Of a stretch of 64,000 nt of DNA, positions 20,686-63,995 are shown piece by piece. A model generated the notes under the pieces. It had not been told where the DNA came from. It did no database searches and was given only the letters and a program-made list of their open reading frames with translations. Source of the stretch: Moniliella sp. 'wahieum' (lineage: Eukaryota); the NCBI GenBank assembly GCA_003971905.1, contig RSEE01000110.1, positions 62,001 to 126,000 on the forward strand, in the 5' to 3' direction. A program made the translations under genes and the position numbers. How positions within the stretch are numbered: the stretch's first letter is position 1; each line of letters starts with the position of its first letter.

Positions 20686-20702
20686 TGATCGATGACGCGT
20701 GA
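20686..20702. repeat. Mixed-core TNA-palindrome heptamer chain TGA-TCGA-TGA-CGCG-TGA
   Basis: Read directly; lies about 140 bp upstream of the acyltransferase start. Confidence 0.8.
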
Positions 20703-21498
20703 CGAGATGATGACCCACGCCAGCGCGGCGAGTAGAATTCGGTTTGGTGACCTGTTCAGCAATCCGATTGTGCAGGGCGGAGCGCGCGGGGTTTGGGTGA
20801 GTGCGGCGGACAGCGGGGGCGTTGAAGGCCAAGCAGGGTCGGTGAGCAGATGGGTCCAAAACCACATCAGGTGGTCATATCGATTGCTCACCGCTTCTGC
20901 CTTTTCCCCCCCGATGAAGCTGATGAAGGAGATATCAATGGATCGAGGGTGGATGCAGGCATTACCTAATCAACGCCCCGACCCGGCCCGATAAATCAAA
21001 CTGTATAAGCTGCTGCCGTTTCAATTTCTATCTTGCTTAGGGCCGCCCAAAACGCCACAAACTGCCCTGCTGCCACCTTCCCTCATCCTCCTTCCTCCGC
21101 CTCCAGGAGGCGTAAGCACCTCTTTGAAGCTCGCAGTTGATGTCAACCACTCGCTATTGCTAGAATGCCCGCTGTTGGCGGTACCATAAACGCTGCTGAT
21201 GCGCTGTGGTGCAGACTTCTGACTAGCTGTTCGAATTACTCTTCACCTCAACACCCTCAGTGACCTGCCACAATCTGCCACATCCTATCCGATAGATCAC
21301 ATCTAATACCGGGGCTCGCAATCTCTCCACTTGAGCGCTGAGCGATGGTCGAGATGATCAAATCGATCATAGCCCTCTGAGGCCCAACCGTTCAGAGCAA
21401 CTCATCCAACAGACCCACACTATCAGTATATGCACGGACCTTCCTATGTGGAATTGCTTTAGTACTCTGCAACAGCTTCAAAACATTGATTAGTATCG

Positions 21499-22295
21499 GA
21501 AGAAGACAAGAGTCAAGCAGGTCGGAACAGACAACGGGGTGGCGCAGCCCGCGCAAGGGCGAATCCCACGAATCAGCGAGCCTCACCGATCCATTGGAGA
21601 GAGTGCAGGTGATCCCTATAGCACTACCTCTAGCAAACATAAATCAATCAGGGGTTTATCCGGTTATACAAAACTCGTGGCCCTGGTGTATACGTTTTGA
21701 AATAAGACTCGACGAAGCACACTCACGCGCTCACACTATATATTAACTCGGCTGCGTAGAGGGTGCGCAGATGGTTAAGTACAAGGTTCAGCGCATATAT
21801 GATGTTCGGCAGGATGGGCACAATGTGGATACGAAGCATCGTTGGTCTTTGGGGATTGTTGCGGCCAAGTCCGGCTGCGACGGATGGCCGTAGCCACCTT
21901 TGGAACATTTTCTCTCCGTCGGCTCTCTCTTGCCAGAGAGTATACTACACTAAAGTGGCCCAATTGTCATGTTCGATCGATGAAGGCTCTGCGAAACGCG
22001 GGGCTCTATATCCGCAAAAAGGGCGGAAAACCCTTCTAGGGTGTTGGTGGGTGTGGTTCTTCGGCCTACTCTCTATCATTTACAGGTTGAGGGATATAGC
22101 TGATTAATGAAGTAATCTAGTAGTATGTACCACAGAGATGCGGAAACTCTCCTAGAATCCACGATGAGTTGAAATGTGTGTGCGGCAATCGCTATATAAT
22201 CAGGCAGGTCGCAGGCTACTCGATGCATTTTGGAATCCCCCCAATACCTGCAAACCACCTCTGATCCTCTCCGTTATACCGCCTCATCAACTTCG
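21499..22295 (+). repeat. ~0.8 kb segment duplicated (inverted) from 3960-4750, upstream of F-box paralogs C and A
   Basis: For example GAAGACAAGAGTCAAGCAGGTCGGAACAGAC at 21502 matches the reverse complement of about 4710-4750. TTTTCTCTCCGTCGGCTCTCTCTTGCCAGAGAGTATACTACACTAAGTGG is shared by both copies. Confidence 0.9.
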
Positions 22296-24930
22296 ATGCT
22301 CGACCGCCTTCCCTTTGACATCATTCTGGACATCGCAGTCTGCGGCCACATCGCCCCTCGTGACCTCATCCACCTGTCGTGGACTTGCCATGGTATGCAC
22401 AGCTCCCTCCTGCATCCCCAAGCACCGCCCTACTCTCATGCTATTGGAGACGGCATGTATAAATCCACTCAGTGTCGGATCCACTAACTCTCCTTTCTCT
22501 TCCCAGGCTTCCATGCGACTTTGCAGGACGACAATTTGTGGCATCATGCCGCGTTTCGTCTTCTCCGTCTTCCATCCTTGTCCACCACTCTCCCTCAGGC
22601 CGCCTACTATGCTGGTTTCGAGGTCGCGCCGCGCACGTGGCAGGGACTACTCGTTTCCTGTGAGCTGCTAGAGGAAGAGTTTGGGTGGACCATGACCGGC
22701 ACCTCTCTACTCGCCACGCAGTCTATCCCTCCCCGGACTAGGCATTCGTCCATGCTGCTGCACGCTCTTCAAACAGAACCCGATCCATCTCCAACCCCAC
22801 GTCTTACCACGGTCCTCCCTCGCCCGGTGCGGTGTATCGGTTAGCTTGTGTGCGCGGGCCCAGTTGCCCATGCCCACGTTCGCCCCAGCAATAACGGTTA
22901 TGCAACATCGGCACCCGATTAAAGAATTTGACGATCCCCGATTTAAGGTGTGGAGGAATATGGTAGTCATGAAAGACTTGTGTTTATGCTCGCCCCATCC
23001 AATCCTCTGGTCCTTTCCGAAGCCGGAAATAGGAATCTTTGGTGGTGCGATGGTACTGCCCGAGGGGTGGGTGTTGCTTCGTTGGCTCGTCGGAATTCCC
23101 CCTGACCCGACAATCCCGCGTGATGAGGCCCTCCAGTACCGACACCATCAAGTGGCGGTGTATCGAGCAAGGGCACTCCCCCCTGGAGACTTTGAAGCCC
23201 ATTATGAATGCCACGAATGGAACAAAGCCTATGACGTATGGTACGTCAAAGAACATTTCGCGGCTGCCGTTCAATTTCCTTACTTGTTTACCTTGTGAGT
23301 GAATCCTCATCCTAAAATGAGAATCGTGCGCACGATTTGTACCTGACCTGTGTGGGTGATCGGGGTGAATCTCAACAGGAGCTTCCCACGAGCCGACGGC
23401 CGGGCTGAACTTGCCACTTGCAATCTTCTCACCCAAGAGAGGAGGGAGGAAGTGGCAGTGACCCTCGGCCATATAGGAGGTATTCATTCTGTGGATTTCC
23501 CGAATCCCCGCCACATCGTCATCGATCGGAACTGGGCCTACGTTTGGGATGGGTATACGTGGGCCGTGTTCGAACGTGCGACTGGCACCTGCATCGTCAA
23601 CATTGCCCAGCTCATGTCGGCCCAAGCTGGGGTCAACATGCGCCGGTCTTACTTTGCGCTCCATGGTCCGGCTACCCCGTATAGTTGCTCATTCCTGCAG
23701 ACCCCGCCTACGTTTCCAGATTTGGAGAGGTTTGAATTTCTGCGGTGGTTTACTGTCTTTCCCAAATCGGATACCTGGGTCTTTCGGCTACTACCCCAAC
23801 GCACGACGGATCTGATGCGTCTTGTGCTGGTCAAGAATTTTCAATCCATCTTAGCCCCGCACTCTCGAAACTCTCCTGAGTCTTGGATGGCGGTCATTGA
23901 TATCGACCCCACGCAGTACTATTTTCATGAGCACCCGCTCTTTAGGCATCAGAGGTATACCGGACAGACCAAAGGCGATCTCCGTATTGACGACGGCCGG
24001 GCCCTTTTCCCTGTCTTCGTCCCCAACTGGCACGTACAACCGACCCAGTGTCGATGCGGCCATCACCTATGCCCGCAGAATGATGTACAACCGACCCAGT
24101 GTCGGTCCGGCCATCACATTATTGGCCATTACGAATCGTTCAATGAGCCGTTATGCCCGCAGAATGATCCTCGACCTACAGCCCAAATTGTTGGATTGAT
24201 GAGGATGGTATTGGTCGATTGGAAGCATGCGTGGCGGCCGATGAGATTCGTGTCATCGACCTCCCCTGCCTGTGATGAGGGTGGATTTGTCGGAGTTGAG
24301 CCAGTTGTATGGGCACCAACTTTTTCTTGCAGGTCCGTGTGCGGATGGGACCCAGTGGCTGAGCACTGTGCACTGTCCAAACCAATTCTTGCCCTCCTCC
24401 AGTGCTCACATCGACCAGTGCCACTGTGCATGCGACTCCTTTAGGTCTGCGTTGGAATCTGCTATATATCAGTGTACGTTCTCCTTCCCAACAGACCCAG
24501 TGCAATGTGGTTTTAACTTCCGCGGGTATATATAGTGTGCGACGATTTCGGAGAAGGACGGCTGAGGAATTATCCTCGAAGAACACGCCGTGCATCAGCA
24601 CACTTCTGGGCTTATTCGCGACGAACAAGGTAAAGAAGCCAACCTGCCTTATGTATTGCGGAATGGGGCACGCGGGCAGTGCGTGGCTGCTGACCATTGA
24701 GTTGCTGTGAAGGTGATGCGGTGGGATTTTGTTTTGGGTCGCAGTCGCCCGGAAATATAAGGGGGTGTTTTGTCCCACGCCTGCATGTTGACACCTGAGC
24801 GACAATACCTCTGCGCCTTCATCCAGATAGCGGCGAAGGGGCCCTCTTCAAAGGAGGAAACGCTATCCATCAGAGATATACCCATTTGGCCCTTATCCGT
24901 CATTCCGTTTCGAAACACCTCCTCTTGACC
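22296..24930 (+). CDS. F-box domain protein, paralog C (mosaic; 3' part degenerate)
   Basis: MLDRLPFDIILDIAVCGHIAPRDLIHLSWTCHG, intron 22393-22506 (GTATGC..CTAAC..CAG), then FHATLQDDNLWHHAAF. A 364-aa open block spans 23350-24444. Confidence 0.72.
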
Positions 24931-27560: not shown

Positions 27561-27587
27561 TGATGCATGATGCATGATGCATGATGC
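27561..27587. repeat. (TGATGCA)n heptamer array
   Basis: TGATGCATGATGCATGATGCATGATGC, about 400 bp upstream of the acyl-CoA ligase. Confidence 0.9.
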
Positions 27588-27831
27588 TCGGTCTACGTTT
27601 CATGCCACGTGTCACACAAATAAATTGTACACAAATACCAAAAAAGCGCATATATATAGTTGTGTTCCTGCGCTGACGCAGACCTCCTGGCAGTTCTCAT
27701 CGTAAGTGACTATGAGTGACGGCGCGAACCTACTAGACAACCTCTCTCTCCTCCCACTCTCTCCCTATATCAACACAACAATTGGTGTGTTGTGCTCCTG
27801 AAGACGTTGATTGATTGATAGGAGTGACATG

Positions 27832-31544: not shown

Positions 31545-33444
31545 CTTTTTCTTTTTTGTTCACCACATTCGCTCTTCCTTTTATTTGTGACCTCAGTCTT
31601 GTTTCTCCATGCCGCGGCGTTCTCTTCCATCAGGGCACTATTCCTTGTTGCACTGCAGTTCGCCTCTGGTCGCTTGTCTTATGTCCAGAGTATCGATCCT
31701 ATCGTAGCGTTTCTTCCCCCATCCGCTCTTTGCACAATTATTGGTGGCCGTCGCGTTTTGTAGACAAGGTCTCTTCGACACGGTTATTACTTGGTATGTT
31801 TTCTCTTTCTTATCCTTTCCGCCTATTGGACAGAGCAACAAAAAGAAGACTCGAGGTCCCGCTTGACCTGATACTGACTACTTCCTACATTTGCATACTA
31901 CACACAGTCGGTCAACCTCGGGTGGGGAACCAAGCCTGGTCCCGATTGTGTTGACTCTCTCTTTGGGCCGAGCCAGTTCAGCCATGTGACCAAAGACAAT
32001 CATTAGATCCCGCATGTGGTGCCCTACTATTATGCCTTTGGCTTGCGTCACCGCGCAAAAGAGAGAGGGAAAGATGGATCAAAACTCCGCCAACTCGACC
32101 GGCGTACTAACGTTTTCCCAACTTCTTATCTCTCTCCAACCACCCCCTATCCCAGCCTCCCCATGCACGGTTTCCTCCTCACATGCGCTGGAACGTTCAC
32201 CCTGATATACTACGCTGGGAGGAGAACCGGGAGAGGCAAACCAGGGGGGATAAACAACCGGCTGTGGAAAGCACTTTTTCTGACCAAAAACCTACACACC
32301 ACCGCATCCTTCTCGTAACATTCTCACATTTGTGTCAGTACTTAGTACTCCAGTACTCCGTCGCTAATAGTCACTAGTACTATAGTCAGCTAGCCCTAGC
32401 CATTAATTACCGGTCACCGGTGCCGCATGTGTGGGACGGCGGCGAGACAGGCGTTTGCGGGCGGGCCGATAATACCGCACACTACGATATAGACGATTTC
32501 CTCGTTCTCGTTGGCCGACCCACACTTATCAAATATGGAGGGATCCACAAGTGTCTACTGTGTGGCAACTAATTAAGATATGCATATGTATTGTCCTTAC
32601 ATAGGTTTCTCTTTCGTCATGAAAGTGTGGTAGCGCTAACAAAAAGCTGATAGACTGAGAAGGGTACATAATATAAGGAAAGAGAGAAGAGAGGTGTATA
32701 TACTACTATAGCTATGCTGTAAAACCTCATTAAGGGGCTAATGGGCGAGCTCATGTGCTCATTCCCATAAGACCTACTCATAGCAGTGTTCTCACTGGGC
32801 ACACCGGCTACTTGACGACGCACGGGTACTCTGCCAACAAGGAAGAGGAGAAGCAAACAGAGATTGGAAGATGAGGAGGGAAGAATGGCTCACCGAAGAA
32901 TATCACGGCTGTGAAGACTCTCACTGAAGAGTCTCATTGGAGACGTTCAGAGCTCACATTCTATCACGCTAATTCGTATCCATTCGCATTCCATTCAATT
33001 TTGGGCGTAATCGAATGCGAGGAAGCCAGGCGGTCCTGTCCGGCTGTCGACTCTACTGCGGCCTCTTGAGTGGGCGCTGGGGGTACGTGCAAGAAGGACA
33101 CGCCTTAATAATGAGCGAGAGCCAGTTGGTAGGCACAGTATTTCTTCGTCCTGATGGTTAAGCTCACTGCAAGTATTATGAATTGATTATAGTAATGAGG
33201 AGAGAGACGACGGCGATGAACATGATGAACGTGATGAACGGCGCAGAAAAATTGGATTGCAATGCCAGGTGTGGCTGTGAAGCTGTGAAGGATAGAAATT
33301 GTTTTTGGCCGAGAGTGAAAAATGCGTACTGCATAGGAGGCGCAGCGAATGTGAGGGGAGGGGAAACGAAGAAATGGAGAAACAGAGAAGTGTAAGAACC
33401 GGAAACGGTGCTAGCACCGGCACAGAACCGACGAGTAGGTGAGA

Positions 33445-34085: not shown

Positions 34086-34282
34086 CTTGGGGGAAAGAGA
34101 AATAGGGAGGAGAGTGTGGATGGTTGTGGATGTGGATGGGGTGGTGGCGTGGTGTAGATCCGACACGCAGGCGCGGTCGATTAAATAGCAAGCCTCATCA
34201 GTGCATCAGTGCATCAGCCCACAAAGATCATATGCGAAAATGCAATGCTGGCAGCCACATCCACATCACACGTACTATGCGA

Positions 34283-34950
34283 TTAACGTTTAACTTAAAC
34301 GTTTAACGATCATCGATCATTATTAACGTGGCGCATTATGCATTACGCGCATTACGCCTCTTCTTGGCTAGATGGCCAAGATGTTGGGTCACCGGTCACC
34401 GGTCATGCGGGTCATGGAACAGGACACTTTCTGACGAGGAATTTACATGGTTATACCAAGAGTGACGAGTGACGCGTGACGGTGAGCAAACTAAGCATAT
34501 GAAGAGCACAGCGGTGTGGTGGGGACGGAGCACCCCAACTGCCCAGGAGGAGGCAAGGGAGAGGTGCTATGCCACGAACTGGTCTAGTGCCCCTGGGCCG
34601 CGCCAGCAGCCTAGAGACGACACACTGTCGTCGTCTGGATCACCATCACGCGAACGCTGTTGCCTCGGAGACCCGACAACCGGTGCGAGCCAGGATGTTG
34701 ATGTGTGACGTCAGTGCGTGTCTAACTAGCGTGACTAGTGACTTGTAATTCGGGAGGCCTGCTGAGGCGCTGAGCGCGCTGGGGCATATAGAAATGCGGG
34801 CGGCCGAATAAAAGGGCCGGTGCATCCCATTGATCGACATGATCGATGATCGATGATCGAGGGAGACGCCACAACGAGTAGAACTCTCTCGCTCTCCGAG
34901 ACACGCCAAGCCAAAATGAGGGTCACCGGTCGCCGATCATCGATCATCCG
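34283..34950. repeat. Dense cluster of TNA-palindrome heptamer arrays
   Basis: TTA-ACGT-TTA 34283; TCA-TCGA-TCA 34310; TTA-TGCA-TTA-CGCG 34336; (TCACCGG)2TCA 34389; TGA-CGAG-TGA-CGCG-TGA 34463; TGA-CTAG-TGA 34732; (TGATCGA)3 34840. Confidence 0.85.
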
Positions 34951-37374
34951 TAATCGAGTAATCCATGCCCACACCTCGAGGCCACCACAGAACTAGCACT
35001 TCTGTAGCGGTTATTCGACGTATAGGACAACTATAGGGATGGAGTGCGATAGGCCGGGCCCTGCTGTCTCGTGGTTTCAATATGTCGAAGTGTGCCAGGT
35101 GTGGGGTTGCAGACTCGTGAACAGTAGGCGGCGAGCATTCATACAAGAGGTGTGCGCAAGAAAACTAGTATAACACAGTCAACATCTGCGCTAACAGGTA
35201 CACACGCCCCGACGAGAAGGGTGCCTATTCCCGAACCTGACGACGGCGTAGCCTACAGAGCATCCTCGGAGAGTCTATAATAGCCGATTTCAGGATACTA
35301 TACCGCGTGTTTTACTATAGCTTTTCGTTTTTTTTTTCATCGGTTCAGAAGTCTCACGCATGTATAGTACAGTCCGCCACCACATGGCCACCATCCCATA
35401 TGGAATGGGTGCATTGATCGCCGAAGAGTAGCTGTTACATCTTACGCGTTACGCATCATGAGCATCACATGTATCATGCTGTATGTGCCTTAATCGAGAC
35501 GGATTTATTCGGAAGGTTGGGATGATGGAACGGGCGGGGGCAACCCAAGCCTCAATTTAAGCTTGTTTGCTTTGGTTCTTTTTCTGTCCGAATATAGGCC
35601 TGTGTGGGATGTGAGATGACGTCGATGATGGTCAATGTGAAGTGTAAGGCCATCCCGTTCAAATGACGTCAATTGAGCGCCGGGAGTCCGAAGAAGAGCC
35701 TGTCACATGTAATAGCCGATCAGATTCTGTGCGCTTGTGTTGTCATGGGCGAAGGAGGGACGGCAAACCCAGCTGTTCCCAACACACGCCCTCCTTCTGC
35801 CTTCCTTGCCCCACACCTGGCCCGCTTCCGGACTTCTTCCTCGTTTCCACCCCAACCACACGAACTCACTCCCAACCACAAGCCAGTCAGATCATATGGG
35901 GAGCTCGTGCCATGTCCGATGGCCGAGGCGGCCACCGAGAGCCTACTACGTATCGTTAACTACGCGGTCGAGCCTTTTTCCCTCCATTTACCGTTCCTTT
36001 TGACCCCTTACTAGTTACTGCATTCCCGTTTTGAGCTTCATAATTACGGCTTATATCTCTCCCAGCAAATCTGTTGGACAGCAGAGAGCGTCGAATGCGA
36101 TGGTGGGACATGAAAGACAGTTAAGAGGGGGACTATAGGCCCAGTAGAGAAAGAAAGAAGAGAGGGATGAGCATGGAGCCGGCAACTAGACTATCGTCTG
36201 GGGCTCTATTGAGAGCATGATCGAATCCGGACACAGCACACTGTCAATAACTCGGAGGATAAGACCAAGTCAGCATGGCTTTTAGAGGCGATTGTGGCCC
36301 TCGGACCCCCCAGTCAACACTTCATATCATTTTCTATGGGGGGATTGTGCCATTACTCTTATATTAAAACAGTCTCCCTGGTGGCGATCGTTCCTCAACC
36401 CCTTACCATGTCTCACTTTCACTTTCTCTCTCTATGATTGCCCCATGTTTCTTTGTTAGGCTTTCATGTGTTCCCGAGGCCGTGAGTTTTCCCTCCAAGG
36501 ACCGTATTCGTCAATTGAAAAGAAAACTTCTGCTCTTATGATTGCTCTACTTATTGATATCGCTCCCCACGCCTTGCAGTCTATACCTTCCACAGTCTTC
36601 CCCGTTCTGGCTCGAATTCCTCATAATGCATGATCCACAGAGATTCCAGTCAGCTCCAGGCTTACTCCAGGCCCACTCCAGGTAGTATCGTCCTTGTCTC
36701 CTTGTCCTCCCGTACCTTATCAGCCCCGGACGGCTTCAGACACCTATGTAATTATTACTGCTCAAGCCGGTGCCTGCTCATAGCCTGAGCGCTCAGCCTT
36801 GCCCTACTACAAAAGCATCCGCACCTCTGCTATAAGCCCAAAAACATTTTCTTGTTCCTATCCTTTAACAGTTCCACCTCCAAGCCCAAGTACGAAACTA
36901 CCAGTGTGAGTCGACGCTTCCGACCTCCTGGGGATTGAACCCCTTAAACGTTAACCCCCGCGGGCGACGGGCCCCCACAGGCCGAGGTCCGCCCTTGACA
37001 CGTCCATGGTCAAGGGGTGGACGAAGTCTCCTAGACCACATGCTTTCTTCGTCTCGGCGACGGATTTGTCTCAATGCCCCCACATGAAAGAAAATCGTCA
37101 TATAAGTTTGGCTGATCTCTCTCTGACATTTCCAAAATTTCCTCGCCTCGAGCGTCTCGCACTTTCCGTGTTATTCTGCTTCGCACACATGTCCTCTGTT
37201 CTTGCTTCTTCCTCACGAACAATTGTTACATTTCTTGACCAAAAGTTGTGACTGTTGTGTGGTCTCTCTCGCCTTTCCCCGACTAGGACAAAAAGTCTGT
37301 TCGACCCTCGGCCTTCCGTGACGTCACGCGCGTCACAGAGCAGCCTCCCAATTATTTATTCGGCTACCTCTGGA

Positions 37375-37402
37375 TGATGCATGATGCATGATGCATGATG
37401 CC
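37375..37402. repeat. (TGATGCA)n heptamer array
   Basis: TGATGCA x3 plus TGATGCC, about 220 bp upstream of the DUF1769 gene. Confidence 0.9.
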
Positions 37403-38680: not shown

Positions 38681-39149
38681 AACCCACGCGTGAGATCTGA
38701 GAACACACAGGTTTCTATACTGTTTTTCCCCCCCTTGGTGGAATTCCACAAGGATGATCCATGAATGGGGGCACTTTGATTGAACTCGTAGTGTAGATGT
38801 TTGCTATTTATGTCTTCGCCCTTAGTATTTGTTGAGCACATACATCTATTCTCGACGGATACAGGGTGTCAAATATCGACGAGGGTAGTAGGATACCCGT
38901 GTCAAACATCCAGCTATATAGTACCTTTGCAATATATTGGAGCACGGCCCTCAATCTCTACAGACTGATGATCATCTATGACCCTTGCACGGGAGAATAA
39001 TCAAGCCATCAGTTACACTATTTGGAATCGTAGAGCACGGGCTTGCCGACAACAAGAAAAGAGAGGGGGTTTCACCAAAGTGATGTAAAAGAAAAGTAGT
39101 GTTGGTTGGTTCAAAGGCGGGTTCAGGTCCCTGACCTTCACGTATATGT

Positions 39150-41924: not shown

Positions 41925-42964
41925 CATGTCACACATGTCACATGTCACATGTACGAAATGGCTAGGACTAGGGGACTTCATAGAGGCATAGGGTTAATTT
42001 GTAGGTCCTACTATATTAATGGTGGGTGGTATTCTAGGTTTTTGCAAGTGGACGTCCTCTTCGTGCCCCGCACGTCACATGTCCCCTGTCCATGTCAGCG
42101 ATCATCGATCATCATGCATCATGTCATGAATGAGATGGAGAGAACTTGGTGGGACGATAGATAGTACAAGAATAACCGGTAACTAGTAACTGGTAAGGCC
42201 GGTAATCCCCATGGAGAGACGAGCATGTGGGGTGCCGGTGATCGATGACCTGATATATCAAGCTTCAAGCTGAAACTTCACTTGAAGCATTAGGTGCCCC
42301 GCAATGACAACGGCAGAATCTACTCGGAACGGAATGATTAATGAAGCGCCCTGCGATGGAAACACATCAACAGATGGACGGATTGTATAAAATCAGAAGA
42401 TCTTTTCTGTGATACGCTGATGATGTGTGTGATATCTACTGTCATCGTCTGCCTCAGGCCGGCTAGTGACTTCGCTCCTATTTCTATTTCATTCGTCCCG
42501 AGCGTCTCGCCCCTTCCCTAGTCCCTGTTCTTCAGCTTCGCACCGTGTCCTTTGCTCTTGCTTCCTCCCCACGAACGATTGCTGACATGCATCCCTTGAC
42601 CGGTGACCTCTAGTTCCGACTCTGGCTGACCTCTCCCTCGCCCTAGCCCCGACTGTGACATCTACCCTTTTGTTTTTCTTGGCACTGAGGGCCTCGGTGG
42701 TCCGATTCAGTTTCTTCTCTCACATCTTTTCCTGTGCGCGGATCGTTGCCTTACGCGTTACGCGTTACGCGTTACGGGACTCAATGTCGCATGATATACA
42801 TGACGCATGCATGATTGTTATGGCCCGCGAACTTTACGTGACATGTGACAAGACAGCAGCTCCTCTCTGTTTTTAACACTTTTGAGTCGGAATGGGATCT
42901 CTAGTTGCTAGTTGACGCTGAAGCGCTAAAGCTTTTTGAAGCTTGAAGCTTGAAGCTTGAAGCC
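41925..42964. repeat. Dense cluster of TNA-palindrome heptamer arrays upstream of GH3
   Basis: (TCACATG)n 41938; TAA-CCGG-TAA-CTAG-TAA-CTGG-TAA-GGCC 42173; TGA-TCGA-TGA 42239; TGA-TATA-TCA-AGCT-TCA-AGCT 42251; (TTACGCG)3 42751; (TGAAGCT)3 42937. Confidence 0.9.
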
Positions 42965-43685
42965 CTTACGAATGAAACCCCCCACAAAAAGGGCTCAGAG
43001 TGCCTGAGAAGGAACGGGTGTGCCGGCCGAATGGCGAGATGCCGGCAAGCAGCAAACACGATTTTGTTGCAGCTTTGACCATAATGCACATAACTGAAAA
43101 AATGGGGGTTAGGACGACGCACTAGACTGGGCGATCAATGGGTAAGCGCGATAAATTGGTCACACCAGTGAGAGCCCAGAACCGCCGTTGTCGGTGAATG
43201 TTTTTAACTGAGAAGTTGCTACGCCACCAAGCTGTCATCGGCCTCGCCACTACCATATGATGTGAGCCCTCAGCTGAGCACTGAACGTCGTATTGGACTC
43301 AGGAGCTTCTGCGACTGAATCGTCCAGAAGTCTGGTGCGAGCTTGGAAGGAATGAAAACTGACTCACGTGACTCAGTGTCCGCGCGGTGTCCTAGGACGG
43401 ATGTCAACACAAAACTAAAAAGGACGATTGCACTGTGCAGAGTGGGTACAGTCAGAGATAGCTTCTCGTAAGCTACTGACGCTAGTTCGACCTTCAATGC
43501 AACAGGGAGAAGAGGAAGGAGGGGAACGAGGGCGCGACGGTAACCAACCCGGAGCAGGCTAGTCGCGGAACTCTAGCGATGTTGAGAACCATCGGGTCGC
43601 TCGTGCTTTGGCTAATGTCCCTTCAGTTCCTCCTCACAGGCGTGGGAGTTCCGTTTTTCTCTCTCCTGTTTTTCCAAGGGTTCCG

Positions 43686-43924
43686 CAGCTTAGCGCTAAG
43701 CTTAGCGCTTATTCCCGGCCTCAGGCACAGGCCTCAGCACTCCAGGTCTTAGACGACAGACTGAGTACTTCAAGCTTCAAGCTCTTCAAGCTTCAATTAA
43801 GCCATCACACCAACAAGTGGTGCCACATGCCGCCATACTCCAACAAAATAACCGCTAAAAAGCGCTAACCGGTAACCGGTAACCCGATGTAATCCGATGT
43901 AACCCGATGTCACATGTCAGATCA
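43686..43924. repeat. TNA-palindrome arrays plus a 10-bp repeat (TAACCCGATG)x3
   Basis: TTAGCGCTAAGCTTAGCGCTTA; TCAAGCTTCAAGC; TAA-CCGG-TAA-CCGG-TAA 43866 running into TAACCCGATG-TAATCCGATG-TAACCCGATG-TCA-CATG-TCA-GATC. Confidence 0.8.
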
Positions 43925-44879
43925 CCCTCGACAGGCTTTTAGGCCTTAGGAAGGCCACTCTCTTGGGTGCGTCCCTGATACTTGGCGTTCTTGTCGCATT
44001 CTGCTTGTTCCAGCAGCCGAAGCAGCTCCTTCTCTCGGCGTTCCAAAGGCGTCGCGGTGCTCTCCTGCACCACCTGCGGTACGCGCTCTGCGCCTCCTAC
44101 GATCCTGTGTCGCGCAGCAAGTGGTCCACCTCCAAGCTCCATTCCTGATCCTCCGATTGCTCCGGGCCCCATCACGCGGTAGTCGGTGCGCAGCGCCTTC
44201 CCCGCGCGCCTCGACCCATCCTCTTCCTCCACAGCAGGTTCCTTGAGGGCGTGGGTGTAGGGGATGGAGCGCACGAGATGGATAATCGATAATGGGCTCC
44301 CGTACTGCCTCGTGCAACCCGATAAACTTGGCCTGGGTGTGGGCGCAAGCCATGATGTGCTCCAGCGAGGACAAGACGTCTCACTTACACATGCTGCGCG
44401 TGGAGCGGCACAGCGTGCGGAGCTGGAGACAGACCTGAGTCTGCTTGTCAGAGAGCCGGAGAGGCACGGGGCGGATGGAATGGCGGAGAGCCAATGTGGC
44501 TCACAGTTTTTATAAACTGAAGTCCTGCAAAAGCTACTTCAGACCTCTGATTGATCTCAGTACTAGTAAGGCAGCACACAGGCAGACCATAAATTCTTTT
44601 GAAAAACACTTTTGATGGAGAGAAAAAGCAACTGAATAACTAAAAGTGTCCAAACAGAAAAGGGGGAGATGCATGAAAGAGGAGAGGGTGTATAGTGGAA
44701 CGAGAGAAAGGTCAGACGCCCATGGCAAATGGCGTCCACGATGATAAATGTCGTGTCGCCCGGGTTTCCATAACTGGGCGTGAAGAGAGAGCAGACGTAT
44801 ATAGGCAGGGATCGTGAATGCGGTATTTGAGCGTGACTGATAAAGGGTAAAAACTGCCATGAAGGCAGATATAAAGGGA

Positions 44880-47038
<2,159 letters not shown>

Positions 47039-48665: not shown

Positions 48666-50451
48666 CTAAATGCGGGGGCTAGCTCGGTCTGGGGTTTCTT
48701 TGTAAGGTGGCTTCTTTTGCCTTTTTATCTGGAGCGGATGCTTGAGCGGAAGCCGTAGCAGAGTTGGGGACAGAGGTTGAACCAGACCCTTTCGGGGGCG
48801 GGGGGGGGGGGGACGTTTGAGGATCGATATCTTACCCGCTGGGGGGAGTTCGAAGGGGTGTGGATGGCCAGAGGGAGACTTTTCTTTCCTCCCTTGGGAG
48901 GGGGAGGGGGAGTGGGAGGGTTCGCATTCTCCTTCTCGCCTCTTTGGTCTTCTTCCTTGGGCTTCTCCATGGGTTTTCTCCTTGAGCTTCTCTTTAGCTT
49001 TTCCTTTCTTTTTCCTTGGGGTTTCCTTGGGTTTTCCCTTGATGTATCCTTCTCTTCCTTTGTCCTTTTTCACCTCGCTATCCTTCTCTTTCTTTTCTTG
49101 TCTTGGCATCCTCAGGCTTGGCCTTGCTCTGATCCAGCTTCTCTTTACCCTTATCCCGACCCTTCTGCGTTTTCTCCGCTGCATCCTCAGATGCTCCAAA
49201 GCGGCGTAGAGCGGGCCATGGCTCTTGGGCAAGGCGGGCTTCTTGTGCCTTTGCCTCGGTAGATGCCAGTAAGGACGCGGCAGCTGCGCATCTGAAAGGG
49301 AAGCGGCCTTCGTCTCTTCTTCGGCTGTGGCTTCTCCTCCTTTTCCTTCAAGAGGTCAAGGAAAGCAATGTACTTCCGGATCATGCTCAATCGTTCCCAC
49401 CCTCTGGGCCTCCATACGTTTTCTCCGTTCCCCTTGGGCTCTGGCACTTTCTGATGAGGGGCAGACTCGATCTGGGTAACACTGGTCGTGTTCCTGGTGC
49501 TGTCCCTAAACGTGTGGCCTTGGAATGCACCCACAAACGCACCCAGCGCTTCATCCGAGACGAAACTGATGTAGGCTCGAGAGGGGATGGTGGGCTTGGC
49601 GCTTCCCCTGTGATAAGTATTATTAGCTGCCTGCCTGTGAGGCGGAGACAGAAGAGAATGGCGGGGACGTACGTAGCACGTTGCTTGCCTTGCACATAAC
49701 TGATCCACTTGGCCGTAACATTCAAAAAGTCGATGTCAGAGTAGGGCTGTGCGGCGGCCTCCCTCGCTGCAAGAAGAGAGGGCTCAATCGGTTTACGTTG
49801 AGGCTTGGGAGGCGCTGAATTCGCCTCTTCGACGGAAGGAGGGCTAGCCTTAGTATCATTGGTACGGGAAGAGAGGGGAAACTGCAGGCACATCAGTTGC
49901 CTCGACAACGTCTCCTGCAAGTACCTTCTTGGCCGCATCTACTTGGGCAGCGGTACGCACCCAGGGTAGGATGCTCGCCCAGAAAACTTTCTCGGGCAAT
50001 GCTGCCGGCAAATGTCGCACGACAACCTTGAGACGGGGCTTACGCTCATGCTTGGTAGCTGGACCCCCGTCCTCCTTCTTTTTCCTCGTCCGCTGTTTCT
50101 TCTTGGGTTTGGCTTTGTCCTCCTCCGCCTCGACCTCCTTCTCTGAAGGCTTCAGTTCGGATGAGGTAGCCCCCTTCTGGCCCTCAGGCGCATCTTTGGA
50201 CGTCTTCTTGGCCTTCTTGATTTCCTCTCTCTTAAGACGCAACTTCTCCTTCTTAGCCGCGGCCTTGGCTCCTTCCGGGCCTGTTCCTGGGGGTCCAGCG
50301 GCGCCGAGGGTGGCTCGGTAGGTTTCTTAGGATCCTTCGGAGGAGGGTTGACCTTGGTAACCTGTTTACCCTTACCTTTTCCCTTATCGGTGCTCGCCGA
50401 CGGTGTGGACGAAGCCGGGGCGTGGCTGGACGAGGTCGGGGACGACGACAT
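48666..50451 (-). CDS. UPF3: Nonsense-mediated decay factor Upf3 (Smg-4/UPF3 RRM-like domain; 3' end approximate)
   Basis: RLKVVVRHLPAALPEKVFW; WISYVQGK, intron, KPTIPSRAYISF..FVGAFQGHTFRD..IESAPHQKVP; YIAFL; K/E-rich tail. Confidence 0.85.
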
Positions 50452-50671
50452 GCTTACCAGTGCATGGAGGTGGTGGGCCGCCGAGTTGCCGCCGCTACGC
50501 CCTGAGCACCTGAGCAGCCTGAGCGTCCTGAACGTGTTGAACGTTCAAGTTGAACCCTGCACCGCTCACGATAATTTCAAAAGCAACCCAGTGTGAGCTT
50601 ACGTACACCACGCTCCCTTCTTTCTTCCTCTGGGCCTCCTACGGCAAGCCCAGCCTACCACTGCCATCGTC

Positions 50672-56411: not shown

Positions 56412-57246
56412 GTTCGCCCAGGCTGCTGCACCAGCTGCTGCTGGTGGGGGGGGAGGGGGGGTGGGGGGGGAGGGGGCGGGAGGGAGAGGAAGCGGTGGCG
56501 CGAGAAACACGAAGGGCCAACCGAAGTCGATGCGGACGATTGGGATCTCGCTAGGCGCTATAGTGAAATCCCTAGCCACTAGTCGCTAGTTTTACTGAGC
56601 GTGCTGGCCAAGGCCTGGGGCGCGGGCTGGGCAGCCACTAGCACGCATGTCTGCGCTCTGTGCCCTCCTGTGCCCTAACCGGCTAACCCCCCCTCTCTCA
56701 GCCTGCAAGCGCACTGCGCATTGCTCTCGCGTCCCAGCACTAGCCTTCGGAGCAGAAGCGACGTTGAGCCTGCAGAATGCCTAAATGGCCTAAATAGAGG
56801 TTTGCCAGGGTCCAACGCCACGCCGTGCCTTTCCCCGCAATGGGCGACAATGGCGCGCTGCCCCCCTGTCTCTCGTCGCGACTAGCCGATCATCGATCAT
56901 CGATCACAAGGCGCACTGGAAGGACGGCCGGCGGTGGCAAGGACAGCCCCGCGGGGTGGAAGCACGGGCCCAGAGCCTCCCGGGGCAGCCGATAGCGCTG
57001 CATTTGGCGCAGCCTGGCGCAGCGCTGCCATCGACCCTCCACCCGCCGATACGTAGTAGACGCTGGGATGGGATCGATGCGCTTTTGTGTTCCGCCCCAC
57101 CTGCTGGCGCCTGCCGGTGCAGCATGGCAGCCCTGCCGGTGACTCCCCCCGCACCAGCCAACTCAGGCCGATGAGGCGCCCCGAGCACACATGGCAGACC
57201 AGGTAAAACCCTACTGGTCGTCGCATAGTGGAAAACAATCTTCATT

Positions 57247-57720
57247 TCAAGCTTCAGCGCTTCAGCGCTTCAGCGATCATCGATTCGGTCACCGGTCAGT
57301 CAGGTACTGTCACATGTCCACAGCACATCAGTGCATCGGCTATGCAGCCCTTGCGCAGCAATCGACAGTCCCCAGGCCTCAGGCGCCTCTGGCACCATCG
57401 CATTGCCACGCGTGTGATAGGGGATGCATAAAGAGACTGGCCTACTGGGCGTCTATGCTGCATGCGTGACAGTCGCATGTTCATAGCATGCACATGTGGG
57501 GAGATTTGTTTTGGTGATTCGGCGTTGTCCGACTTACCGGTTACCGGTTACCGGTTACCGCACAAAGTCAACATTCAATATTCAACGTTCAACAACTGCA
57601 CCACTAAACTTGGACGTTTGTAACGCTCACCTCACCGCCTCACCCTCGGCCAACTCTTCCGTAGCCCACGACGAGAGGAAAAGGTGCCAGAAGATGGTCG
57701 CCCCTCAGGCCTCAGGCCGA
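57247..57720. repeat. Cluster of TNA-palindrome heptamer arrays upstream of KRE6-like gene
   Basis: TCA-AGCT-TCA-GCGC 57247; TCA-CCGG-TCA 57289; (TTACCGG)3 57534; TCA-ACAT-TCA-ATAT-TCA-ACGT-TCA 57568; (TCAGGCC)2 57705. Also (TCATCGA)2TCA at 56890. Confidence 0.9.
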
Positions 57721-58075: not shown

Positions 58076-59937
58076 CTAGAGTCGCGCTTCAGACCACTCA
58101 CTCTCGTCTTTGGACAGGGGGAAGAGCAAGGCCTCCTCCAGCCACTGACTCGCCATATCCGCGCAGAGATCCGGGTAGATTTGGGGCATCATATGCTGGG
58201 CCCCCTCAACGAGCACAGCCTCTCCACGGATAGGAAGGCACTGCAACAGAGTGGGCCAGTCTTTAAAGGGTGGATCACTTGGGTAGCGAGCCAGGTTAGC
58301 CTGAGTGAGTGCGGTACGCATCTTCTCTCCATTGGACCGTTGGAGTTTCAGGGACATGGCGGGTAAGTGGGACGCGTTGAGGGGAAAGCACGGACGCGAG
58401 TGAAAAAGGGAAAGGGCGTATCGTGTACAGGATAATCGGTACCACAAAGAACGTACAGTCGGCCCTGAGTGGGGGGATGAAACGCACCGAAGCGCCCACT
58501 GGTGTTAGCCAGATGGACATAGACACTGGGCCATCCTGCCGCGTAGACTTCGGCTTCGGCCATCTTGTTGTTGTTCAGGGCTACACCATCAGGGCGAAAG
58601 GAAAAGGCGAAGCGGAGATAAATAGCAATCGCCTCTTCCGTCCAATTCGGATAGGCGCGACGGATGGCGCTCTCTGCCATTTGCTGATTAGGAAACAGAT
58701 CACGTCGTTTACGCACCAAGTGGGCCAGCTTGGTGAGCCCTCGTTCTAAGCTCGTCCAAATGGGTAGGCCACGCGGTATCTCTTCCAATTCTTCGTTAAG
58801 AAGAGGTGGTATATCCCGCACAGCATAGAAAGGTGGCATATTGTAAACAGGATCGAACAAGATACCAGTGTGGAACAGATCTGGACGAACGTTTAGTGCC
58901 ATCCCCCCTAGTGCGCCACCCATACTGTGGCCGACAAAGATAGTGCGCGGACGAGGGCGATCAGACGCAAGGCGAGGCAGGACTTGGGGTGACCATTTAT
59001 CGGATGGGGGGAGGTAATGGTCCACAAACTGGATGTAGTCACGGCACAGATCCGGCCAAAAAACAACTGTTTTCAGGACAATAATCTTCTCTGTTAGTAC
59101 AGTAGTGACTGTTTCCGTACCATACAGCATTTTAGGTCAGAAAAATTCTGGACTTACGACCATGTGCGCTACCTTCACGATTCAGATCCGCCGCCTCACC
59201 CGATATGAGGTTGTCCATAGTCCAAATGTCGCGGATCTTCACCTTGTTGCCGTGCAGACGGTGAACCAACATGCGCAGAAAGGCTCGAATATCTGCATAA
59301 TGGAGATCAGAGTCTCTTCAGATGCGATGCCCCCTAAATTACCCATTATATAGAAAGAGATTAAAGGCCCACAAACGTACCTCTTTCACCATCCCTGCTC
59401 CATGAGCCAGAACTAGGGTCACATCCTCCCCTTCCTCATCGAGAGAAGCAGAAACGGGGAAGGAAGGGGAGATTCGTTCGACGACACCCCATAGTTGACG
59501 TTGCTTGTCACGAATACGTTCTTCTAGAATTCGCTTCTTCTCTTTTTCCCAAGGGGAGCTGGGTGCAGAGCCAAGCGCTCGATATGAGGTTGCAATGCCT
59601 TCCACCCTTCTGCTGATTCTTCTTTGCTCAGACCCGGGGGGAGAAAGGCTTGACCCTCGGGCAAGGTTGCCTCCCGTAGCAGGCGCGGCCATGCAGCAGG
59701 GAAGGTGTGCGAACGGCTGATCCAAGCCACGCCGTCGGGACCGTAGAACGCCACCCTTTCGCCCCGTAGGCCGTTTGGTAAACAATGAAAGGTGGCTCCA
59801 ACGCGTCACATACGTCAAAGGGGACTTGGAGACCTTCGTACGTCTCCCTGAGTTCGCAGGGGAAGGAGGGGTAGAACTACCTCACTCGGGTCGGCCAAGG
59901 CCATACGCAAGGCTTCTTTGTTGACGCGTAGTGTCAT
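58076..59937 (-). CDS. Alpha/beta hydrolase (Lpx1-like) with PTS1
   Basis: SHTFPAAWPR; TLVLAHGAGMVKE; nucleophile elbow FVGHSMGG; LFDPV; KRRDLFP; VEGAQHMMPQ; ends SEARL*. Start approximate. Confidence 0.82.
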
Positions 59938-61487
59938 ATATCCAAAGCAACTTGGAACCGTGGCGGGCTGATGTGAGATATGATAGGAATGGAAACTAGA
60001 TGCGCATGATGCTGGAAGACTCTCTTTATACTTATTAGGTGCCCCCCCTTCAGTCTCTCCTTAAGCCTATATCGGTGTTTCGTTGTTTGATTGGGTCTGT
60101 ATTTTCCTTTTTCCTCTGCACAGCCTAGGCCCTGGCAGCGACTGTGGCTGTGCTTGATGCAGGAGCGTCATGTTCCTCTGTAAGTGTTCCTGGCTGGCTT
60201 CACTAGACCACCACCACAACACTAGTGCGATTGTATCGTCTTCGAGGGCCACTGCTAGGACTCGAGAGGTTTCCCTGCATCATCACCTACACTGAATTCC
60301 GCATGAAAAAGCGAACTATAAAGCGCTAAAATCTGCTAAGGACATACTTAGAGGGGCACAGGGAGGATACTAAAGGGAAGATTATGTTCCAAGTTTTTTG
60401 CCCACCGGATATAGTTGCCCTCTGATTAATGATTGTACCGAGCATCCCAAACCGCGCATCTGTTCAAGCGGCGGGACAAAGGTCCTAATACGCCCTAGCT
60501 GTAAAGTGTGCGCTCTGCTTTCGTTCGCGCCGCAAGACGATGAGAATGCCAAAACGATTACCGACTGGTGAGCCAGCGCCTCAGCCCTCCGCACAGGAGG
60601 GCTCTCGTATGGGAGAGTGCACAGGCACCATGAGCGATGGACGCCCCAGCAGGAAGCGGTCCGATATTGCGTTAAATTAACGTTACCTGTATAGTATGAT
60701 TGCTTCGATAGTAACACTGATACACACTGATGCTGCCCGCGCTATTTTAGTCTCTCTGACGACACCCACCTGGGTACTGTGATATAAGATACTGTAGGTA
60801 CAACGATTAGATGCTCGGCATTACCTTAAAACTTGGCCCTAGCTGTCTATCATATCTCTGTCTTTCTCTTCGAGGGAGAACCATTTTGGGCTTTCCAGCG
60901 AAAACAAACAAGACCATTGAAGAAAGAAGGGGGCTTTGACTTGGAGGCATGGTATGCGGATGTAATACCCCATGGTATATGGATGTAATACCCGTAGTTA
61001 TCGTCAGCAGAGTCAAACGTGAATCGTCCACTCTACTCATGCAGCTCTGAGTTGTGATCCATTGGTTGCGCAGGTATAGCATTGTTTCTCCCACCAAGTT
61101 ATGACTTTGCCTTTCCCCGACTTCGCCCACAAAATCACATACAGAGCATTTCCGGTCCTATGGATGCCCGAATCTTGGGATAACGCTACCGTGAGCAATA
61201 TAGGACTTTTCCTGGAAGCAAACCTACTATTGATCCATGGTCGTCGTCGAGGTAAGATGGTTAACAGGAAGCGGATCGATGAGTATAACGAGAGGTGGGT
61301 AACGCAGGCCAGAACAAGATTCAATGACCTTGTCCCTCGTTACCAAGAGGGAAAGTGCTCGACGAACACAAGCAAGTAAATGCGGTAAATCATGGAGACC
61401 AGGAAGCATTGGATATAGGTCAATGCTTGATGGCCTTGGCTTGCCTACCCGTAAATCGTCGAGTGAGACGCATCGTTGCCGTCCAGG

Positions 61488-62370
61488 CTACACCAGCGTC
61501 TCATTCCGTACAGGCGAATGAGGAGGATCAAATTCTTGATGCTCCTGAGGGTGCCTCGGCTCTTCTTCCATGACGCGCCGTGGCCGCGGTGCTTGTCCCA
61601 GCTGAGAAAAAGAGGTAATCCCAACAATCGACTCGGTCCCATGGTCGGGGAGTGGGTTTAGTGCACTAGCACTGGTGAGGTAATTGATCTCCTGTAGACA
61701 TCTGGGTTGGATTAGCCCCAATTTCTAACAAGATGGGGTAAAACAAGGTATAAGAGGAGGACATACTGCTGCATAAAGTCCCTGCTTCGCGCTTTGGACT
61801 TAGGGTCTTTCTGGGCTAGCAGCACGCTGGAACCAGAGGGGGCGGCGCCGAGCGCCGAACCGGGACGAGACCCGCGTGACGAGAGCGGGCGAGAGGGAAG
61901 GATGTTGGCGATCTGAGCGTGAATAGGGTGAGGGGGGTTCCTCCTCCTCGTGAGGTTCGTCGGGATGGTCGTTAGAGTGTCCCTCGGAGGGGAGACAGGG
62001 GAAGCGGGGCCTGAATCTTGAGTGGCGCCCGCGGCCGCAACGAGGTAGCGTGCCCGTTCCTGGCGGAGCGCAAACTCGAGCATCTTAACACGGCGCATCA
62101 GATCGGTCTTGGCATTCTCCATACTCGCTCGCTCCCCTTCGAGCAGGGCAATGCGGGCTCGCATCTCAGCGCGTTCGATCTCCCATTCGTTGCGTTCGCG
62201 CTCGTATTGCCGCCATTCGGATTGGAGGTGGTGGAGCACCCCAGAGAAGGTTATTGGCTGGTGTCGCTAAGACCCATCAGGCCGGACCCGCTTCCCGTCC
62301 CGTTGTCTCCAATCCCCCCACTTCCACTTGCACTCCCGTTCCCGTACTCGTTGGCCATCGTTGTTACCAT
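61488..62370 (-). CDS. Striatin family (Far8/Pro11) N-terminal region; no WD40 domain seen
   Basis: TFSGVLHHLQSEWRQYERERNEWEIERAEMRARIALLEGER..DLMRRVKMLEFALRQER; KARSRDFMQQ, intron, CLQEINYLT. Confidence 0.85.
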
Positions 62371-62553
62371 CCAGGAGCTCCACTTGCTCGCCACGTCCAG
62401 AAATCGAAGCTAGAAAGGACCAGGGGGGCTGAGCTAAGCAAACGAAATGTTCACAAATGCAATTTACTCCACATTTTTATACCAGGCACCGCTTTACCAT
62501 CAGGCCAATAGTCCTTCAGAATAAAAGAACGAGTATAGTATGATGATGGCCAG

Positions 62554-63995
62554 TGAGTACTGAGTATACAATTTGGAGAGTGGGTGGGGAAGGCAACATG
62601 TAACGTAGATCACTAGTGACATGTGGCCCGACCTCTGCTCCTGGCGTTACGCGTTATAGCCCGCATACAGGTCAACGTTGAGTGTTATGGGGTGGAATAC
62701 GTTGTCGAGTGCTGAAAATCTTCGTGCGCAAAACTCAGAGGCTATGCCAACAACTTGTGGGTTAGAGGGATAATGGTAATTGCTCCAGAGGAGGCGGCTT
62801 ACTAGCTGGTGGAGAAAACGTCAAAAAAAGTCACAGGAGCAGAATGACTGTGTCAAGATTGACGATCGGATGACATGCATAACACGGATAATGGAACCGG
62901 GACCAGATAAGTTCGCGACGGTCCAATTCTTTTGTGGCAACGGAGGCGGAATGGACATCCTTATTCATTGATCGCCGAGACCATCGATCATCGACCAAGC
63001 TGTCCCTCAGTGAAAGTCACTAATTGATGAGACCTGCAATCCACTGGTGGTGGTAATGATCTAAGCCAACCAGTAACGCCTACAGAGGAACATCAAATTT
63101 CAAGCAGGGTGTCGCCACCAGGGGCTAAGCTGCGGAACAAGGAAAAAACAGCAGAGTGAAGACAACGGAACTCCTAGGCCCGAGGCCCGAGGAGGAACAG
63201 AAGGGATGTTGGCCGGAGCACGAGCCAGCCGGTGGCTCAACGCTAGTGAGTGACTATGACTAGTAACTAGGAACTTCGCTAGTGCGCGTGAGCCTCACGG
63301 GTAAGTCTGAGATATCTGAAGGTCTGAGAGGGTGACCGTGACGCGCTGATACCTGAGGCTCAGGCCCCTGAGGTCGGGCGTTGATTGGTTGATTCAACTG
63401 GGGAGTTTGAAGCTACTCAGCTTGAAGCTTGAAGCTCTTGGCAAATGGGTAGAAATCCACCCGCCTACCACCGGCCACCGATCGCCAAACGCAAATCACT
63501 TGCAGGCCCCAGCAACAAAGAAACAAATAGGGTTGGCCTGAACGAGTACATCATGCGGTGATCGGTGGGTGGCTCTGGATGCATCATGCATCATGCATCA
63601 TGCACATCATCGACATCATCTGCATCTGCATCATCCTGCATTGCATGATCGATCCATCGACGCGCGACGAGCGAAGCGCATGACGAGGACGAGTGACCGA
63701 TGACCGGCCAGTGACCGGAGTGACCGGTGACCGGTGACCGGCGACCATTGACCAGGTGGCACGCGCCACGATCCTCTTCTTGTTAGATAATCCAGTAGTA
63801 CTTCAACTTTTTCCCATGTCTCCCTTCTAGCCATGTCACTCTCCTCTACGTCTACTCGTACTCAGTACTCACTACCAACGAATCTTTTACCTACCTGAGT
63901 TATCAACTTGAGTACTCGTTGAGTACTCGGTGCTACTCGTCTTCCCTCGACTATACAGCGACGTTTTTCAGCTGTGATGCATGATGCATGATGCA
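62554..63995. repeat. Dense cluster of TNA-palindrome heptamer arrays upstream of striatin
   Basis: TGA-GTAC-TGA 62554; TCA-CTAG-TGA-CATG 62610; TTA-CGCG-TTA ~62647; TGA-CTAG-TAA ~63257; (TGAAGCT)2 ~63423; (TCATGCA)3 63584; (TGACCGG)3 63721; TCA-GTAC-TCA 63862; (TGATGCA)3 63975. Confidence 0.9.

Follow-up and report, generated by a model that had tools for sequence, protein, structure and literature searches.

We analysed a 64,000-nt stretch of a contig from Moniliella sp. 'wahieum' (RSEE01000110.1, positions 62,001 to 126,000; hereafter the window, in whose numbering all positions below are given) and found it to be rich in one short unit, a TNA triplet followed by a 4-bp palindrome and then by the same TNA triplet again. 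Under this strict definition the window contains 80 units, grouped into 59 loci, whereas 30 first-order Markov simulations of the window gave a mean of 2.2. These units are mainly a mutation signature rather than a grammar of arrays, because 43 of the 59 loci consist of a single step. They are probably the excision scars of a transposon that would have duplicated a 7-bp target centred on TNA, with hairpin processing of the broken ends like that in V(D)J recombination.

The remaining 15 flank-triplet classes, for which the same simulations gave an expectation of 2.4-6.0 units, occur 2-13 times apiece in the window (GnC 7, CnG 4 and AnT 2), and TnA accounts for 44% of the units of all triplet classes in the window, at a density of 1.25 per kb. 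An earlier note on this DNA had pointed out the recurrent pattern and had seen no comparable arrays flanked by G..C or C..G, and the counts bear out both observations. It had also described dozens of arrays under one rule; the rule stands but the description as arrays does not, since besides the 43 loci with one step there are 11 with two steps and five with three. Its claim that 14 of the 16 possible cores are used was right about the wide use of cores but not about the details: by the strict rule 15 of 16 are used, TTAA and AATT occur and TATA is absent. The middle base of the triplet in the strict units is G in 31, C in 29, T in 14 and A in 6, and its second copy is the same base in 80 cases and the complement in 8. 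Three sites formerly taken for direct units (50538, 36786 and 42251) have the complementary middle base (TN'A) and so are perfect 10-bp palindromes.

Palindromes of that kind (TNA-palindrome-TN'A) occur 8 times in the window, against 2.8 expected, and include 36786-36795 and 42251-42260. A 6-nt inverted tract accounts for the one at 50538, and the remainder are unexplained or due to chance.

The same preference is seen among longer repeats. With Tandem Repeats Finder, short arrays of period 7 proved numerous from 27 to 64 kb. With length cut-offs matched at 2.5 units for each period, there are 15 perfect runs of period 7 (at least 18 nt), compared with two of period 5, six of period 6, two of period 8 and none of periods 9-12, and the unit has the form xyTNAy'x' (primes denoting complementary bases) in all 15. 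When the cut-off for perfect runs of period 7 is lowered to 14 nt, 25 of 40 have an odd-palindromic unit, a fraction that by our arithmetic would be at most about 11% by chance, and T-N-A forms the centre in 24 of these 25, the sole exception being CACTGTG at 24363.

We described the elementary event by the 12-mer TNAwx-x'w'-TNAwx. On both strands this pattern has 143 matches, against 8.1 expected from 50 first-order Markov simulations, and its TnA class has 99 matches against 0.32 expected. The matches fall in 63 loci. Many of these span 12 nt and no more, their two flanks being out of register (as at 21332), and the palindrome was therefore newly created at the scar, not merely amplified. 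Simple duplication of a pre-existing palindromic heptamer was considered as the elementary event and is excluded by palindromes that arose where none existed.

In 36 of the 43 single-step loci the core copies the pair of bases beside the TNA. The template is the right flank only in 15 loci, the left flank only in 13, both flanks in 8 and neither in 7; the chance of a core matching one flank is 1 in 16. When the 36 target sites are reconstructed, only the T and the A are fixed, apart from a weak C at -3 and a weak G at +3. Loci with a perfect 12-nt pattern (51 vs. 0.2 expected) outnumber those one substitution away from it (33 vs. 9.25 expected), which suggests that the scars are mostly young.

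Size classes further define the event. We measured the direct part of each repeat exactly, anchored on TNA, and denote each form by its number of direct plus inverted nucleotides. Gains of 7, 8 and 9 nt are the only ones above chance. A gain of 7 nt is seen at 56 loci (31 of form 5+2, 14 of 6+1 and 11 of 7+0), a gain of 8 nt at 10 (five 6+2, two 7+1 and three 8+0) and a gain of 9 nt at 12 (six 7+2, three 8+1 and three 9+0). Forms at or below chance are 5+0 (3 vs. 3.8), 5+1 (2 vs. 0.8), 5+3 (none) and 8+2 (none), and products with gains of 6 and 5 nt, which would need trimming, are absent among the size classes. The 6+1 and 7+0 forms are 5+2 events with a chance match to the flank, or repeated events: the 2-nt inverted pair is present in 14 of 14 matches to 6+1 and in 11 of 12 matches to 7+0, and one extra matching base is found at 14 of the 56 loci of the 7-nt class, which is the 25% expected by chance.

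Across these classes the palindrome centre always lies exactly 2 nt past the TNA, while the other junction retains 0, 1 or 2 more bases. The direct repeat reaches a maximum of 7 nt (ab-TNA-wx); 8 direct nt together with a 2-nt inverted tract never occur. The full 7+2 form has nine matches. In addition, complete 7-bp nnTNAnn copies surround exact inverted tracts of 5-6 nt at three loci, against 0.0 expected for each. Excision footprints with P nucleotides are textbook, and two of their marks can be read directly in the window: a direct duplication of fixed maximal length lies on both sides of the joint, and the insert repeats the end of the flank in reverse-complementary form. A 5-bp duplication with two P nucleotides was rejected as a full description, because it fails to yield the 6+2, 7+2 and 7+6 forms.

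Scars of the 5+2 type are also seen at the near-cognate triplet T-N-G (complement C-N-A), at 61847-61858, 63179-63192, 44130-44141, 42903-42914 and 63658-63669. About 13 non-TNA 5+2 loci were found in all, against roughly 8 matches expected by chance.

The units are unevenly distributed, with 78 of the 80 lying within 20-64 kb and only two in the gene-dense first 20 kb. If open frames of at least 120 codons are taken as a crude and over-inclusive stand-in for coding DNA, 47 of the 59 loci fall outside them, in DNA that makes up 33% of the window. This non-ORF DNA (ORF, open reading frame) contains 1,224 TNA sites in 21 kb, or about one visible scar per 20 TNA sites. The loci gather in spacers, mostly those upstream of genes; clusters were seen near 34.2-35.0 kb, 41.9-44.3 kb (in the spacer upstream of the GH3 gene), 57.2-57.7 kb (likewise upstream of KRE6) and 63.4-64.0 kb. 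For comparison we used 80 metagenome fungal contigs with KRE6 relatives (626,708 bp), none of which is from a close relative (at most 58% identity). There, TnA units are 46 of the 724 units of all triplet classes (6.4%, about 1 in 16), at 0.07 per kb, so that TNA enrichment is absent from these 626,708 bp of contigs that are not from close relatives. Because the TnA share in the 80 contigs is only about 1 in 16, the pattern is not a general fungal feature.

From the templating, the sizes and the 7-nt ceiling we infer the following cycle. Each unit would record one insertion and excision of a cut-and-paste DNA transposon whose staggered insertion duplicates 7 bp, ab-TNA-wx. On excision, both flanks would be sealed into perfect hairpins, as in the V(D)J, Transib, hAT and MULE reactions, and a host nuclease would nick each of them, usually at the border of the TNA, 2 nt from the hairpin tip. 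Once opened, the left flank would end in the 4-nt self-complementary 3' overhang wxx'w' and the right flank in b'a'ab, and each overhang would be ligated directly to the recessed 5' phosphate of the opposite flank with no trimming or loss of bases. The 4 x 4 mismatched joint might then be resolved by replication or repair into either TNA-wxx'w'-TNA or TNA-b'a'ab-TNA, for a net gain of 7 nt made up of a copied TNA and a palindrome templated by one flank. If the second hairpin were opened 1 or 0 nt from its tip and the gap filled, the gain would be 8 or 9 nt, and rare distal opening of a hairpin would give the long inverted tracts. A scar of this kind would double the TNA target, so that later strikes could extend it into heptamer arrays or mixed-core lattices.

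A symmetric two-hairpin joint predicts the balance between left and right templates (13 vs. 15), and would explain why the dinucleotide of just one flank is seen, in both orientations. Two different cores are present in 3 of the 11 two-step loci, where the model predicts 1 in 4, and TNA-palindrome-palindrome-TNA, a by-product predicted if both overhangs were kept, was found 0 times in the window against 0.17 expected. A post-hoc fit in which the two hairpins open independently, with a probability of about 0.85 at +2, 0.07 at +1 and 0.08 at 0, gives back the shares of the 7-, 8- and 9-nt gains (72%, 13% and 15%). The earlier note had offered, among three possible origins, scars of a recurrent cut-and-repair process with a 4-nt stagger. 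The templating, sizes and long tracts support a scar origin, but not the stagger, since the duplication is 7 bp and has TNA at its centre. The preferred reading of the 4-nt palindrome is that it was the self-complementary overhang left when a flank hairpin opened, and not the product of a 4-nt staggered cut.

Several points weigh against excision scars. A scan of the window for terminal inverted repeats, covering duplications of 3, 5, 7, 8 and 9 bp, returned only array artefacts at 7-9 bp; at 3 bp and 5 bp it gave 60 and 9 hits, respectively, which agreed at 12-13 of 14 terminal positions. No transposase domain emerged when 20 and then 86 window ORFs were scanned against Pfam, and the window contains no filled site. 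No element ending in CTCACTG, CACTG or CACTA with a 7-bp duplication was found in the window, and a search for CTCACTG-ended elements with a 7- or 8-bp duplication gave only two pairs with a 3-bp common flank, which we take as chance. About 100 events in 64 kb would demand very high past activity, and the joints are uniform, with one type making up 72% and no base loss seen. The canonical hAT reaction does not fit, because the palindromes are even and centred at the edge of the duplication, unlike those of Ac/Ds, and the 7+2 and 7+6 forms do not fit a 5-bp duplication of the Transib type. TNATNA, the product if both overhangs were lost, is not clearly enriched in the window (42 vs. 29.9). Both the mismatched-joint step and the opening probabilities were fitted after the fact, and the polarity, presumed to be insertion rather than deletion, is read from the pattern. 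Finally, the controls were first-order Markov simulations of the whole window rather than shuffles of intergenic DNA.

Breakage and repair without any transposon is an unlikely source of the scars. A host nuclease, or a domesticated transposase-like one, would cut at TNA where chromatin is open, and the 7-nt unit would be written as the hairpin-capped or staggered ends are repaired. No element is visible in the window, and the scars are extremely uniform, dense and clustered upstream of genes, all of which would accord with such a nuclease. However, a direct duplication of up to 7 nt flanking an inverted tract is what marks a staggered strand transfer whose insert was later removed, and we could conceive of no geometry by which a nuclease alone would give both the retained 7-bp duplication and the flank-templated inverted bases. 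It is quite unlikely, too, that the scars were written by a still-active agent, rather than an ordinary resident transposon, that repeatedly breaks promoter DNA at TNA. Such an agent might be a domesticated transposase that forms hairpins, or else a highly mobile element of low copy number, and uniform repair (opening 2 nt from the tip and untrimmed ligation) would then act as a lineage-specific engine of tandem repeats and palindromes in regulatory DNA.

Replication errors, in which slippage or template switching at quasi-palindromes would create and expand the heptamers, are a very unlikely cause. Four multi-copy arrays do fold modestly (-6.8 to -9.1 kcal/mol, z from -1.5 to -3.1), and multi-step loci (16 of 59, with two or three steps) are commoner than independent events at the window-wide rate would make them. 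This excess is explained by local hot regions, such as the 23 units in 40-44 kb, so that slippage is not required, and 43 of the 59 loci are single births. The strict T-N-A, the invariable 2-nt inverted pair and the restriction of gains to 7, 8 and 9 nt do not resemble slippage either. Two single-step sites of the majority class, when folded, gave -1.8 and -2.0 kcal/mol with z about 0, and the second origin proposed in the earlier note, hairpin- or cruciform-forming elements, is therefore unsupported as a cause. Ordinary micro- or minisatellite slippage was rejected on the single births and on the TNA centre in 24 of the 25 palindromic period-7 runs.

That the units are cis-regulatory arrays under selection, with TNA half-sites 7 bp apart kept for an oligomeric DNA-binding protein, is highly improbable. 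Their position mainly in spacers upstream of genes and the regular TNA spacing would suit such a function. On the other hand, 15 of the 16 cores are used, the core is set by the neighbouring bases in 36 of the 43 single loci, no base is preferred past the T and the A in the 36 reconstructed targets save for the weak C and G, and most loci contain just two TNAs. The remaining origin proposed earlier, sites for a dimeric protein, likewise finds no support in the range of cores, in the dictation of the core by the flanks or in the middle base, which is direct 80 times and mirrored 8 times. Later co-option of some arrays for regulation is not excluded. An assembly or sequencing artefact is hardly credible: near-identical paralogous segments in the window differ by 1-nt homopolymer indels that hint at residual long-read errors, but random read errors cannot make flank-templated palindromes at TNA only and restricted to non-coding DNA.

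Representative loci and the densest cluster are listed in the table. The window ORF products identified by Pfam scans are typical of fungi, namely TAF5-like NTD2/WD40, TRAPPC9/Trs120, an AMP-binding enzyme, D-2-hydroxyacid dehydrogenase, Duc1 and GH3, and further a GMC oxidoreductase, UPF3, mitochondrial L31, KRE6/SKN1 and striatin. The best named relatives of the KRE6 ORF are from Ustilaginomycotina (Testicularia, Pseudozyma, Tilletiaria, Meira and Exobasidium), at about 55-64% identity, which marks the DNA as that of a smut-related basidiomycete with no close relative among these named matches. The G+C content of the window is 51-62%.

Table. Positions of TNA units (probable scars), arrays and variants, in window numbering
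Feature	Positions	Strand	Remark
Three-step array TGA-TGCA-TGA-TGCA-TGA-TGCA-TGA	27561..27584		upstream of AMP-binding enzyme gene
Three-step array (TGA + TGCA)	37375..37398		directly upstream of Duc1-domain gene
Three-step array (TTA + CGCG)	42751..42774		
Three-step array (TGA + AGCT)	42937..42960		
Three-step array (TTA + CCGG)	57534..57557		upstream of KRE6/SKN1 gene
Two-step mixed-core lattice TGA-TCGA-TGA-CGCG-TGA	20686..20702		cores templated by left flank GA and right flank CG
Two-step mixed-core lattice TAA-CCGG-TAA-CTAG-TAA	42173..42189		
Two-step mixed-core lattice TCA-ATAT-TCA-ACGT-TCA	57575..57591		
Two-step array (TCA + CCGG)	34389..34405		
Two-step array (TGA + TCGA)	34840..34856		
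Two-step array (TGA + CCGG)	63721..63737		within decayed run of related units 63693-63758
Two-step array (TGA + TGCA)	63975..63991		at window edge
Minimal single scar TGAGC-GC-TGAGC	21332..21343	+	5 nt direct + 2 nt inverted, both flanks out of register
Minimal single scar TGAGT-AC-TGAGT	62554..62565	+	
Minimal single scar TGAGA-TC-TGAGA	38691..38702	+	downstream of Duc1-domain gene
Repeated 8-nt variant TTCAGC-GC-TTCAGC-GC-TTCAGC	57251..57275		one extra base 5' of TNA retained
Repeated 8-nt variant CTGATG-CA-CTGATG-CA-CTGATG	34196..34217	-	
9-nt variant GATGAAC-GT-GATGAAC	33224..33239	+	two intact 7-bp copies + 2 inverted nt
9-nt variant AGTGACC-GG-AGTGACC	63710..63725	+	
Long inverted tract GTTGAAC + GTTCAA + GTTGAAC	50536..50555	+	6 nt are reverse complement of left copy's end; 0.0 expected
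Long inverted tract, mirror form GTTAAAC + GTTTAA + GTTAAAC	34288..34307	-	overlaps 5+2 scar 34283-34294
GCTTAGC + GCTAA + GCTTAGC	43688..43706	+	7-bp repeat around 5-7 nt inverted tract; parse ambiguous
AGTGACG twice, only TNA-centred 7+0 duplication without inverted bases	34461..34474		followed by 5+2 scar 34470-34481
Densest cluster	41925..44295		spacer upstream of GH3 gene; 40-44 kb bin holds 23 of 80 units

Other repeats were also seen in the window. A paralogous segment in three copies (1575-4732, 6727-9094 and, inverted, 21514-24659) flanks the TAF5-TRAPPC9 genes. Its copies at 7327-8522 and 22856-24054 are 99-100% identical and differ only by 1-nt indels, mostly in homopolymers, which may be residual long-read errors; alignment of 6700-9100 with 22250-24700 likewise gave mostly 1-nt indels and no 7-nt event of the TNA type. 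An ORF in this segment is open in two copies (23347-24444 on the plus strand and 6910-7830 on the minus strand). It matched no Pfam family and no homologue at E ≤ 0.001, and looks like an orphan gene family. G-rich tracts include an imperfect G19 at 48794-48812 and a stretch of about 47 nt at 56443-56489, directly upstream of the KRE6 ORF. A 23-nt tandem duplication at 60948-60993 (2.0 copies, 91% match) is unrelated to the TNA rule. Overlapping CT-rich repeats of 11-13 and 25 nt at 48944-49037, inside or beside the UPF3-like gene region, are probably a low-complexity coding repeat.

If the units are indeed excision scars, the window would preserve transposon excisions as a fossil record of unusual density and cleanness, its 64 kb holding about 100 events. 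The scars would then record how this fungus repairs hairpin-capped breaks, including the position of opening and ligation without trimming, and would provide a concrete route for the de novo birth of tandem repeats and palindromes in promoters. They would also hint at a family of transposons whose target is 7 bp, nnTNAnn, of which we found no description for smut-related fungi in the literature searched. Full-text literature searches likewise gave no description of a TNA-anchored, near-uniform 7-nt scar that builds heptamer arrays.

Among known systems, the P nucleotides of V(D)J joints and the hairpins of Transib and RAG are alike in that the inverted bases are complementary to the flank end and the palindromes are even and centred on the cut. 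Target duplications of Transib and RAG are 5 bp, which differs from the intact 7-bp copies seen here, although the 5+2 form alone would have been compatible. A Transib/RAG-like agent was rejected because that length is contradicted by the 7-bp copies in the 7+2 and 7+6 forms, and no RAG- or Transib-like gene is in view in the window. Artemis:DNA-PKcs is described as opening coding-end hairpins within 1-4 nt on the 3' side of the tip, with +2 the primary position and 4-nt inverted-repeat 3' overhangs dominant, which matches the dominant 2-nt tract in the window (PMC2175297). By the same account V(D)J coding joints usually lose bases, whereas the scars in the window are without visible loss (PMC2175297).

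Flank hairpins are reported for hAT, Transib, MULE and RAG, with host enzymes opening them, end joining sealing the break and footprints remaining (PMC5499845); in yeasts the Artemis relative Pso2 has been implicated (PMC5873905). Ac/Ds in plants, budding yeast and Candida albicans is alike in that both copies of the duplication are retained with short palindromic insertions derived from flank hairpins through end joining (PMC5873905, PMC5499845). It differs in its 8-bp duplication and in heterogeneous footprints whose palindromes have the complement of the bordering base at their centre, whereas those in the window are even and of one type in 72%; 128 excisions in C. albicans gave 28 footprint types, with deletions (PMC5873905). 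As the agent, hAT was rejected on the 8-bp criterion, the duplication here being 7 bp, although hAT7 families of rusts with 7 bp exist (PMC12730594), and also on the footprint centre, the palindromes here being wxx'w' with no central complemented base.

PIF/Harbinger was rejected because all four middle bases occur in the units (G 31, C 29, T 14, A 6) and because the flanking dinucleotides are duplicated as well. The target of PIF/Harbinger is TTA or TAA. Its duplication is given as 3 bp for Harbinger (PMC12730594). Tc1/mariner elements are alike in leaving a stereotyped small insertion between copies of a duplicated target. The inserted bases in their footprints come from the transposon ends and are constant, whereas the inserts here are flank-templated and variable.

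Basidiomycete transposons with 7-bp duplications have been described, namely hAT7 of Pucciniales (rusts), which groups with the Ac/Tam3 lineage, and Kyakuja (KDZ) of Agaricomycotina (PMC12730594). They share the duplication length and belong to the same phylum as the window fungus, but no copy of either was found in the window; the main text of that paper does not contain the stem 'Ustilag', and no target consensus was found in the paper (PMC12730594). The numerous 10-bp repeats of Ustilago maydis, 26 of which lie between the effector genes of cluster 19A, have been suggested to be transposon footprints (PMC4081816). These possible precedents too are small spacer repeats of a smut genome, and TNA + 4 + TNA is likewise 10 bp. 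If the units in the window are excision scars, they would offer a testable explanation for these U. maydis repeats.

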